Shown one piece after another: positions 15,471 to 17,512 of a DNA stretch of 24,000 bases (its first letter is position 1; every line of letters begins with the position of its first letter). The translations under genes and the position numbers were made by a program. The notes under the pieces are model-generated. The model had not been told where the DNA came from. It saw only the letters and a list, made by a program, of their open reading frames with translations, and did not search any database. The stretch comes from Nitratidesulfovibrio vulgaris str. Hildenborough (lineage in GTDB: Bacteria; Desulfobacterota; Desulfovibrionia; Desulfovibrionales; Desulfovibrionaceae). Location of the stretch: NCBI RefSeq assembly GCF_000195755.1, contig NC_002937.3, positions 2,659,175-2,683,174 of the forward strand, written 5' to 3'.

Positions 15471-16919
15471 ATGAACGACTCCGCACATCACCAACGCACG
15501 CAAGACGCCACGGGCAACCGCATGCGCGTCGTCATCTCCGGCATGGACTGCGTCACGCCCTTGGGCGACGACGCCAGCCTTGCCGCCCACCTACACCACG
15601 GCACCCCGCCCTTCATGCCCGCCCCGGTGCTGCCGGGGGCCGCATGGTGCCCTGTGAACGCCTTCGACCCGGCACAGGCGACAGACCACTGGCGACACCG
15701 CCGCTATCTCTCGCGGGGCGGTCTCTTCGCGCTGGCTTCGGCCCTCGGCGCAGCACGCGATGCTGGATGGGGGGCATCGGCCCCCGACGGGGCGGCGCTG
15801 GTCACCGCGCATGGTCCCAACCTCGACATCACCTCGGACTTTCCGCACTGCCATTGCGACGTCTCCGGGACTGGCGACACACAAGGCGATGCGCCCTCTC
15901 CCTGCGCGACCTCGACGCATGGAGGCCCCACCGCCGCGCACGGCGTCAATGGCATGAATGGCGTGGATGGCCCAGATGAGGCGCGACATGGCCTCTCCCG
16001 CGATACGGCAGGACTCGACCACCCCGGACTTGATGCCCTGTGGCTGCTGCGCTGGCTGCCCAACACCGCCGCCTCGGCCATCGCGCAGCGCCTCGGCATC
16101 CATGGTGAAGGGCTGGTCGTAGGCACGGCCTGCGCCGCAGGCTTGCAGGCACTGGGAGAGGCATACCGCCGCGTGCGGCACGGTCTCGCCCCCACGGTGC
16201 TGGCTGCGGGCGGCGACTCCCGCCTCTCTGCGGGGGGGATGCTGGGCTACGCACGGGCCGACGCCCTGTGGCACTCCAACGCGCGCCCGGCCTCCCATGC
16301 CGAGGCCCTGCGTGCCATGCGGCCCTTCGACGCCGCGCATGGCGGCTTCGTCCCCGGTGAAGGCGGTGCGGCCTTCGTACTGGAGACGGAAGCCGCTGCA
16401 TGTGCGCGGGGGGCTACAATCCACGGCGAGATTCTCGGATTCGGCGCGACACTGGACGGTGCCAGCCTCACGGCCCCCGATGCCACGGCGCATCACGCCG
16501 AATGCGCCGTGCGCAAGGCCCTCGATGACGCAGGGTTCACCCCCGGCGACATCGCATGGGTGGCAGCGCACGGCACCTCGACACCGCGCGGAGACGCCGC
16601 CGAAGCCCTGCTTCTGCAACGCGTCTTCACCGACGCGGGGCACCGCCCCGCCGTCACCGCCCTCAAGTCATGGACAGGTCACCTCGCCTCCGCCTGCGGA
16701 CTCGCCGAATGCGCGCTGATGCTGCGGGCCGCCCGGTGCGGCGTGCTGCCGTCCATCCGCAATCTCGACACCCCATGTTCCCCGGCAGCGGAAGGACTCG
16801 ACCTCGTGCGCGAACCACGTCCCTTCCCGCAAGGGCCGGGACTCATCCAGAGTTTCGGCTTCGGGGGGCAGAATGCCGCGCTCATCGTCATGCCTGCCGT
16901 AACAAGGGCGGGCCAGTGA
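15471..16919 (+). CDS. Beta-ketoacyl-ACP synthase, KAS I/II (FabF/FabB) type, Cys-His-His triad
   Basis: VVGTACAAGLQALGEA carries the active Cys. AAHGTSTPRGDAAE and LKSWTGHLASACGLAE carry the two His. Also PFDAAHGGFVPGEGGAAFVLE and a C-terminal SFGFGGQNAALIV. There is a ~68-aa insertion at residues ~121-188. The start could instead be ATG 15522 (MRVVISGMDCVTPLG). Neither start has a clear SD. Confidence 0.85.
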   Translation: MNDSAHHQRTQDATGNRMRVVISGMDCVTPLGDDASLAAHLHHGTPPFMPAPVLPGAAWCPVNAFDPAQATDHWRHRRYLSRGGLFALASALGAARDAGWGASAPDGAALVTAHGPNLDITSDFPHCHCDVSGTGDTQGDAPSPCATSTHGGPTAAHGVNGMNGVDGPDEARHGLSRDTAGLDHPGLDALWLLRWLPNTAASAIAQRLGIHGEGLVVGTACAAGLQALGEAYRRVRHGLAPTVLAAGGDSRLSAGGMLGYARADALWHSNARPASHAEALRAMRPFDAAHGGFVPGEGGAAFVLETEAAACARGATIHGEILGFGATLDGASLTAPDATAHHAECAVRKALDDAGFTPGDIAWVAAHGTSTPRGDAAEALLLQRVFTDAGHRPAVTALKSWTGHLASACGLAECALMLRAARCGVLPSIRNLDTPCSPAAEGLDLVREPRPFPQGPGLIQSFGFGGQNAALIVMPAVTRAGQ

Positions 16920-17512
16920 TGCCGCGTCACGCCATGCCGACAGCACACGACGCCATCTTCACGGACGGCACACAGAGGGCCTCGCACACGTCCCCTTGCC
17001 CCCCGCATCTCCCCGGTGAAGCACTCCCCGACGACACGCCCCCCGGTTTCGTGCTTCTGGACGCCATCACGCGCTACGACACCTCGGGGTTGACCGCAGT
17101 GCGCCAGTACAGCCGCACCCCGGCATGGCACGCGGTGGAAGCCATGGCACAAGCCGGGGCCATGCATCTGCGGTTTCTGGGCGACTTCTCAGACCATGCC
17201 TTCCTGCTTGGCATCACCGACTGCCCTTGGCCCGAGACGCCGCTTGACGGCTGCTGCCGTATCGAAGTGCGCCTCACAGCCCTCACACAGGGGGCGGCAT
17301 CCTACGACATGACCCTTTCCCTCGATGGCCCTGATGAGGTGACCACAAAGCAACAGACGGTGGGGCGTACTGTAGAGCACGCGGTACGGTGGGTGGGGCA
17401 GGGTGCGATGCTCTTCGGTCGCGTCCCCTACGACAACATATACCGCGAGGCCGTCCTCGCGCCACGCTACCGGAGACTCTTCGCATGGCTCACCCGTTCC
17501 TGCACCGCCTGA
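16919..17512 (+). CDS. Second hot-dog-fold protein, FabZ/FabA-like, retaining EAMAQ but lacking the His-containing segment
   Basis: The ATG at 16919 overlaps the KAS TGA (TGATG). [22 protein letters not shown] resembles FabZ [36 protein letters not shown] matches FabZ LILEAMAQATGIL. The FFQGHFPGKPIFPG block is absent. The N-terminal ~45 aa are low complexity. Confidence 0.5.
   Translation: [197 protein letters not shown]

Follow-up and report, generated by a model that had tools for sequence, protein, structure and literature searches.

The window analysed here is a stretch of 24,000 nucleotides from Nitratidesulfovibrio vulgaris str. Hildenborough (contig NC_002937.3, positions 2,659,175 to 2,683,174 of the forward strand), and all coordinates below refer to it. 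It carries a biotin operon containing two separate genes for FabZ-like hot-dog proteins, designated HD1 and HD2, which probably encode the two subunits of one FabZ-type 3-hydroxyacyl-acyl carrier protein (ACP) dehydratase with a single composite active site. The order of features is birA (minus strand), an inverted repeat resembling the BirA operator, bioB, bioA, HD1, a short-chain dehydrogenase/reductase (SDR), an ACP, a ketoacyl-ACP synthase (KAS), HD2, bioF, and bioD. The repeat, located at 10491..10523 between birA and bioB, reads TTGTAAACC-N15-...GTTGACAG; it departs from the BirA operator consensus at 3 positions and gave 0 matches in 100 shuffles, and Rodionov et al. had predicted a BirA site here in 2004 (PMC545781). 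The bioB and bioA genes (10361..13278, plus strand; limits of the open reading frames, the true starts lying further in) are upstream in the same operon and are followed, all on the plus strand, by HD1 (13275..13661), a short His-bearing subunit of 128 aa similar to DVU2560; by the SDR (13658..14686, DVU2561-like), a presumed 3-oxoacyl-ACP reductase that matches Pfam adh_short and NCBIfam FabG-like models, the latter all far under their equivalog cut-offs; by a dedicated ACP (14786..15193, DVU2562-like) that has kept its Ser in an ESID motif; and by a KAS II-type ketosynthase (15471..16919, DVU2563-like). HD2 (16919..17512), a Glu-bearing protein of 197 aa without the His loop, corresponds to DORF42491, and is followed by bioF (17482..18759, start approximate), which encodes 8-amino-7-oxononanoate synthase, the consumer of pimeloyl-ACP, and by bioD (18720..19481). 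The two hot-dog genes thus bracket the SDR, ACP, and KAS genes, as the initial annotation of this stretch had stated. Because gene ends overlap at 13275/13278 (bioA/HD1), 13658/13661 (HD1/SDR), and 16919 (KAS/HD2), the arrangement is compatible with co-translation.

The operon itself is known. The extended bio operon of Desulfovibrio, DVU2558-DVU2565 plus DORF42491 (PMC545781, PMC10102598), is the same as that in the window, and its inserted fatty acid synthase (FAS)-like genes were predicted by Rodionov et al. to form a new route to the pimeloyl precursor (PMC545781). Nine clustered genes were found by Trotter et al. in 2023 to be important for growth of D. vulgaris without biotin; DVU2560 and the previously unannotated DORF42491 are among them, and both were described as having "FabZ-like domains" (PMC10102598). 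These two papers name both genes as candidate dehydratases, and do not note the complementary half-sites, the parallel with ApeI:ApeP, or the polar pocket residues described below. The HD2 protein of the window shares 94% identity with the representative of a cluster containing an N. vulgaris hypothetical protein.

The ATG start codon of HD2, at 16919, shares bases with the KAS stop codon (TGATG), its own stop codon lies at 17510-17512, and its end overlaps the start of bioF. The initial annotation had described an EAMAQ motif and a FabZ-like FVLLD segment in this open reading frame and the loss of the His-bearing segment of about 14 residues, and all three descriptions were confirmed. Since scans of Pfam and NCBIfam with E values up to 1 returned no match for HD2 or for any of 128 relatives (0/128), its likeness to FabZ needed testing by other means. 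When all 1.84 billion cluster representatives were scanned with HMMER, 206 relatives were obtained, typically of about 150 aa. When a family profile built from 128 sequences was aligned with E. coli FabZ using hhalign (E 5.6e-5), FVLLD was paired with FLLVD of FabZ and E74 with FabZ E68, and 11+3 = 14 FabZ residues, GHF included, fell into gaps. The same profile, used in hmmsearch against the PDB, returned FabZ chains only (best E 0.0038), in which lglEalAQ was paired with liiEAMAQ; a narrower profile of close homologues alone produced nothing from the PDB except spurious matches to designed TIM proteins. In the AlphaFold2 model (predicted local distance difference test score, pLDDT, 82) the protein adopts a hot-dog fold with a core of approximately residues 42-192, an N-terminal segment of about 40 residues modelled at low confidence, and a strand (57-67) that continues directly into the central helix (69-87) with no His loop between them. 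In a Foldseek search with this model FabZ ranked first (E 3.5e-5), and 4HBT-type thioesterases and chain B of PDB entry 6QSR came next. HD2 is a FabZ-derived hot-dog protein and the product of a real, conserved gene, and its resemblance to FabZ is not due to chance. The EAMAQ motif is encoded at 17138..17152 on the plus strand, with E74 (17138-17140) as the predicted catalytic acid, and H83-L84-R85 is encoded at 17165..17173 on the same strand and lies on the same central helix.

The model also shows an additional C-terminal helix (177-191). This element, amphipathic and specific to the family (residues 177-192, window 17447-17494), is preceded by the invariant Y171; D172, F175, L180, Y184, F188, and L191 are nearly invariant, and the helix is absent from FabZ and from ApeP, a subunit of the ApeI:ApeP dehydratase considered below. 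It could be a contact of the heterodimer, or it could act as a lid in place of the His loop that was lost. Long relatives of HD2 carry low-complexity insertions or appear chimeric.

The presence of thioesterases in the Foldseek list bears on a different function for HD2, that of a hot-dog thioesterase which sets the product free (pimeloyl-ACP to pimelate), proofreads it, or clears chains of incorrect length, E74 serving as its nucleophile or base in the manner of Arthrobacter-type 4HBT enzymes. The Arthrobacter 4HBT and PA1618 thioesterases matched with E values of about 1e-4, near those of FabZ, and enzymes of this type employ a central-helix Glu. On the other hand, the PDB search with the 128-sequence profile returned no thioesterase chain at E values up to 10, so that profile searches do not move HD2 into a thioesterase family, and the EAMAQ, FVLLD, and strand motifs of HD2 are FabZ signatures. 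No profile similarity to 4HBT proteins and no Pfam 4HBT match were found, and similarity of fold by itself does not discriminate between the families. Free pimelate would moreover be a dead end, since Desulfovibrio lacks bioW and hence cannot re-activate it (PMC545781), and bioF, which adjoins HD2 in about 63 of 66 loci, uses an acyl thioester. A thioesterase role is accordingly considered highly improbable.

HD1 is recognised by curated models at the margin only: its match to Pfam FabA is borderline (E 5.5e-5, 23.3 bits against a cut-off of 23), and it scores 22 bits in NCBIfam FabZ models with cut-offs of 113-155. Its profile matches in the PDB are FabZ, with H21 of a DHF motif (13335..13337, plus strand) aligned to the catalytic His of GHF and R35 (13377..13379, plus strand) aligned to the catalytic Glu. 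The AlphaFold2 model (pLDDT 79) is a short hot-dog fold with a core of residues 1-100 and a disordered tail (103-128); its top Foldseek match was FabZ (E 1.4e-4), and 6qsr_A (ApeI) was also matched. Orthologues of HD1 are about 100 aa long and start immediately ahead of the strand leading into the His loop, without the N-terminal PFLLVD segment of FabZ. The predicted catalytic His is invariant, both in 53/53 loci and in 144/144 database homologues. The position of the FabZ Glu is variable, with the composition H73 Q31 R12 N6 S6 E5 D4 Y2 G2 L1 (n=144); an acidic residue is thus found there in 9/144 proteins, and no other acid is invariant in HD1. The initial annotation had read HD1 as having the His and an Arg at the Glu position, which is correct for the protein in the window (H21, R35) and does not extend to the family, in which Arg (12/144) is confined to close relatives resembling that of N. 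vulgaris. The tail, taken as residues 101-128 (window 13575-13661), is of low complexity with pLDDT <50, and overlaps the SDR start codon; close relatives vary in length between 118 and 128 aa. No similarity between the HD1 and HD2 families was detected by hhalign, and the two are therefore not recent duplicates.

Conservation and gene linkage were assessed in 80 genomic loci encoding HD2 relatives, which were collected with a 20-sequence HD2 alignment and are numbered with the prefix L below. They come from Desulfovibrionales (including Bilophila), Desulfobacterales, Syntrophales/Syntrophobacterales, and one SAR324 metagenome-assembled genome. The recurring order is HD1-SDR-ACP-(nitroreductase-like)-KAS-HD2-bioF-bioD, and its HD1-SDR-ACP-KAS-HD2-bioF part is shared by Desulfovibrionales, Desulfobacterales, and Syntrophales. 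The KAS gene was directly upstream of HD2 in 70 of the 72 loci with enough DNA, bioF was downstream in approximately 63/66 (60 scored automatically, with L002, L007, and L021 added on inspection), and HD1 was present in the same locus in 47 of the 55 with enough upstream DNA. Where sequence was sufficient, bioF was absent downstream of HD2 in L028 and L062; the upstream DNA of L062 is too short to judge HD1. The complementary pattern recognised in the initial annotation from the single pair in the window recurs in these orthologous bio clusters: the conserved His is found in HD1 only, where it is invariant, and the conserved Glu in HD2 only (80/80), and the N-terminal FabZ segment is kept by HD2 and absent from the HD1 orthologues.

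Residues conserved in all 80 genomic orthologues of HD2 are F44, E74, A77, Q78, A81, H83, R85, F90, L96, and Y171, and H93 (76/80), Y129 (71/80), and Y184 (78/80) are near-invariant. H71 (in AWHAVE), three residues before E74, was considered as a substitute catalytic His and rejected, being kept in 3/80. The conservation of H83, R85, H93, and Y129 in addition to E74 would be compatible with HD2 acting as a self-sufficient homodimer that uses E74 together with H83 or H93, either as a second chain-length-specific dehydratase or as an isomerase or hydratase, independently of HD1. Some loci with HD2 and no nearby HD1 would fit such an enzyme, and the two rounds of dehydration, at C5 and C7, might in principle be served by two enzymes. 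The positions of these residues are unfavourable to it, however: H83 and R85 lie 9 and 11 residues beyond E74 on the same helix, which in FabZ is the far end of the tunnel and not the catalytic kink, and H83 and H93 are 9-19 positions past the Glu. A catalytic His at a position like that of H83 or R85 is not known from any hot-dog dehydratase family. A self-sufficient HD2 would also leave HD1 without any conserved acid, and this explanation is judged to be unlikely.

Taken together, HD1 and HD2 contain the FabZ motifs FLLVD, GHFP..PG, EAMAQ, and RFxxxVxPG, and they share with FabZ the hot-dog fold and, as a predicted pair, a site in which, at the dimer interface, His comes from one subunit and Glu from the other. 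They differ in that neither polypeptide has both catalytic residues, that HD2 fails all curated FabZ models (PF07977, TIGR01750, NF000582), that HD2 is polar at tunnel positions which are hydrophobic in FabZ, and in that the pair would have a single asymmetric site in place of the two present in a dimer of FabZ, a homodimeric or hexameric 3-hydroxyacyl-ACP dehydratase.

The closest precedent for this arrangement is ApeI:ApeP, for which a heterodimer having just one active site has been described (PMC8041823; structure PDB 6QSR). For ApeI and ApeP, solubility of each protein only on co-expression has been reported. For comparison, the E. coli CFT073 ApeI and ApeP genes were taken from L081:42880-43233 and 35685-36149, respectively. 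ApeI (117 aa; ...WFNGHF...PLLPGVAQLD) has the His and no N-terminal segment, and ApeP (154 aa; MLLLEDV...LDPDGNLPGWFALELMAQ) has kept the N-terminal segment and the Glu, in ELMAQ, and has no His. As with HD1 and HD2, two separate genes for FabZ-like hot-dog proteins occur in one cluster resembling a type-II FAS or polyketide synthase; the xHF His is borne by a short subunit (about 100-117 aa) without the PFLLVD segment, E(A/L)MAQ and the N-terminal segment are retained by a longer one (about 150 aa) without the His, and one complete site is possible, no more. In Foldseek, the HD1 model matches chain A of 6QSR (ApeI) and the HD2 model matches chain B. Sequence similarity is weak, the hhalign comparisons giving E 3e-4 with a probability of 40% for the HD2 profile and ApeP, with E74 paired with the ApeP Glu, and E 0.018 for the HD1 profile and ApeI. 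PF22818 (ApeI-like) is listed for HD1 relatives in precomputed tables; in a local scan of these relatives the best match reached E 0.03 and 15 bits, the cut-off being 28.5, and the HD1 of the window had none. ApeP keeps the loop minus its His, whereas in HD2 about 13-14 residues are deleted, leaving a strand-to-helix loop of 8 residues compared with 21-22 in FabZ and ApeP. ApeP also has neither a conserved C-terminal helix nor the invariant H83/R85; the Glu position is Asp in ApeI and mostly His, Gln, or Arg in HD1; and the products are aryl polyenes in one case and, for HD1 and HD2, a biotin precursor formed from short dicarboxylic acyl-ACPs. By analogy, HD1:HD2 would work like ApeI:ApeP, and membership in the same family is not claimed.

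The initial annotation had instead compared the pair with mycobacterial HadAB and HadBC. These enzymes and HadBD are likewise heteromeric hot-dog dehydratases of type-II FAS, with one site per heterodimer and a second subunit that shapes specificity. Had dehydratases are MaoC-like proteins of the (R)-hydratase fold, in which the whole dyad is contained in HadB and HadA, HadC, and HadD are non-catalytic. The Had chains were weak fold matches, with HadBC ranking 20-30 among the Foldseek matches of HD1. Because HadB holds a complete dyad, HadAB/HadBC is the wrong analogue for two proteins that are both FabZ-like and between which the catalytic residues are divided, and ApeI:ApeP is closer. The comparison nonetheless points to a further alternative, in which HD2 would be a non-catalytic partner or scaffold, akin to a chain-length factor and related to HD1 as HadA or HadC is to HadB, with catalysis carried out by HD1 or by the housekeeping FabZ. 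Heteromeric hot-dog dehydratases with an inert subunit do exist, HadBC and HadBD are among the fold matches of HD1, and HD1 retains a FabZ-like FRFRxFVxPG strand. Invariance of E74 and Q78 in the exact catalytic register of FabZ would, however, be unexpected in an inert protein, and the lack of a conserved acid and of the N-terminal tunnel segment weighs against catalysis by HD1 alone. An inert HD2 is therefore regarded as quite improbable.

In the heterodimer that is preferred here, HD1 would supply the catalytic His, H21, from its DHFPG loop, and HD2 would supply the catalytic Glu, E74, from its central helix. In the FabZ of H. pylori (HpFabZ) the catalytic pair is His58' of the other monomer and Glu72, and the tunnel is lined by Leu21, Gly79, Phe83 (the "back-door"), and residues 93-98 of the same monomer as Glu72, with Ile20-His23 lining the tunnel in the emodin complex (PMC5143422, PMC2692856). 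From this distribution it follows that the Glu-bearing subunit builds the pocket and the partner mainly contributes the His loop. Judged from sequence, HD2 retains precisely the elements that build the pocket and HD1 the His loop, in agreement with the HpFabZ layout; HD2 would thus build most of the acyl pocket, since it keeps the N-terminal FVLLD segment and the tunnel-lining helix and strand positions of FabZ. The second, symmetry-related site would be dead, as the His loop of HD2 is deleted and HD1 has neither a conserved acid nor the N-terminal tunnel segment.

The predicted substrates are 3-hydroxyglutaryl- and 3-hydroxypimeloyl-ACP, carried on the ACP of the cluster. This ACP would carry malonyl, the KAS would condense, the SDR would reduce, HD1:HD2 would dehydrate, and a nitroreductase-like enzyme would reduce the enoyl intermediate, two rounds giving pimeloyl-ACP for BioF. 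The putative enoyl reductase would be encoded within the cluster in most non-Desulfovibrio loci, and in D. vulgaris the corresponding enzyme is DVU1220 (PMC10102598). In helical register, A81 (Glu+7) of HD2 corresponds to the Gly79 position and R85 (Glu+11) to the Phe83 position, and helix 69-87 is continuous in the AlphaFold2 model. R85, at the back-door register, may anchor the omega-carboxylate, and together with H83, H93, and Y129 on the pocket face of HD2 it probably accommodates this group in its free form; a short polar pocket is suggested by these positions, as placed by register and not by superposition. Such a pocket would fit the suggestion by Trotter et al. of a methyl-ester-free pathway whose active sites may be less hydrophobic (PMC10102598). 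A further and rather doubtful step, offered tentatively, is that HD1:HD2 is specialised for dicarboxylates, the hydrophobic tunnel of FabZ having become a short, closed, positively charged pocket (R85, H83, H93, Y129) that binds the omega-carboxylate of 3-hydroxyglutaryl- and 3-hydroxypimeloyl-ACP.

Several observations weigh against a strict split-site heterodimer. Five loci (L009, L019, L028 from D. piger, L052, and L063) have SDR-ACP-KAS-HD2 and no HD1 nearby; the first four are gut Desulfovibrio-type contigs, and L063 runs from bioA directly to the SDR. A relaxed hidden Markov model combined with a His-loop motif found no HD1 in these loci, the search covering their contigs, and no D. piger HD1 was among the 120 matches listed for an HD1 profile search. 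Three further loci without an adjoining HD1 are split clusters. HD1 of Bilophila and of L017 retains the Glu and could in principle form active homodimers. A His at the Glu position in 73/144 HD1 proteins gives them two His residues (H21, H35) and no acid, which is unexplained if that half-site is simply dead. HD2 has conserved His residues of its own, H83 and H93; no natural HD1-HD2 fusion was found among relatives; the transposon phenotypes of the biotin genes may be polar; and, the sequence similarity being weak, the parallel with ApeI:ApeP may be convergent. The initial annotation had called the partnership obligate. Its occurrence in one operon in most loci speaks for a pair, while the roughly five loci without HD1 and the Glu-bearing HD1 of Bilophila and L017 do not support so strict a term.

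Several features of the neighbouring genes were also recorded. The cluster ACP is 123-139 aa long (window, L017:5677-6048, L063:5055-5474); its phosphopantetheine Ser lies within ESID(L)LE, and a conserved stretch of about 38-45 residues is inserted before the last helix when it is compared with E. coli AcpP. The gap between the ACP and KAS genes is about 600 nt in most non-Desulfovibrio loci, and in the two inspected it is filled by a gene of about 210 aa for a nitroreductase-like protein, a candidate enoyl reductase (L017:6041-6676, L063:5731-6414). In the window this gap (15194-15470) is 278 nt and holds no nitroreductase-like gene, in line with D. vulgaris, whose DVU1220 is located elsewhere. 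At 482 and 342 aa, the KAS and SDR of the window are approximately 80-95 aa longer than their Desulfobacterales orthologues (401-405 and 245-247 aa, respectively), and the Pfam match to the KAS N-domain begins at residue 196. The extra length looks like lineage-specific low-complexity insertions; similar insertions occur in the HD1 and HD2 relatives of Nitratidesulfovibrio and Bilophila.

The operon, the biotin requirement, and the FabZ-like nature of both genes were known already (PMC545781, PMC10102598), as were FabZ-like heterodimers with one site, from ApeI:ApeP. The reading of this pair as a split-site heterodimer in a cofactor pathway was not found in the literature searched and appears to be new, as do the proposed polar-pocket residues and the definition of the HD2 family by its deleted His loop, its added C-terminal helix, and the absence of a Pfam model. 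That family comprises >200 clusters at 50% identity, covered by no Pfam model. For the pimeloyl route of Desulfovibrio, Bilophila, Syntrophus, and many Desulfobacterales, what genetics shows is no more than that the cluster is required. Assigning the dehydration step to a one-site HD1:HD2 enzyme gives a concrete design for reconstitution, with H21, E74, and R85 as targets, and would extend the split-site architecture of ApeI:ApeP from secondary metabolism to cofactor biosynthesis. The candidate residues would account for the handling of free dicarboxylic intermediates by FAS-like enzymes in the absence of methyl-ester protection. If the charged dicarboxylate pocket offered tentatively above is real, it would explain in structural terms how this pathway can do without the BioC/BioH methyl-ester disguise, and it would also help to stop elongation at C7.

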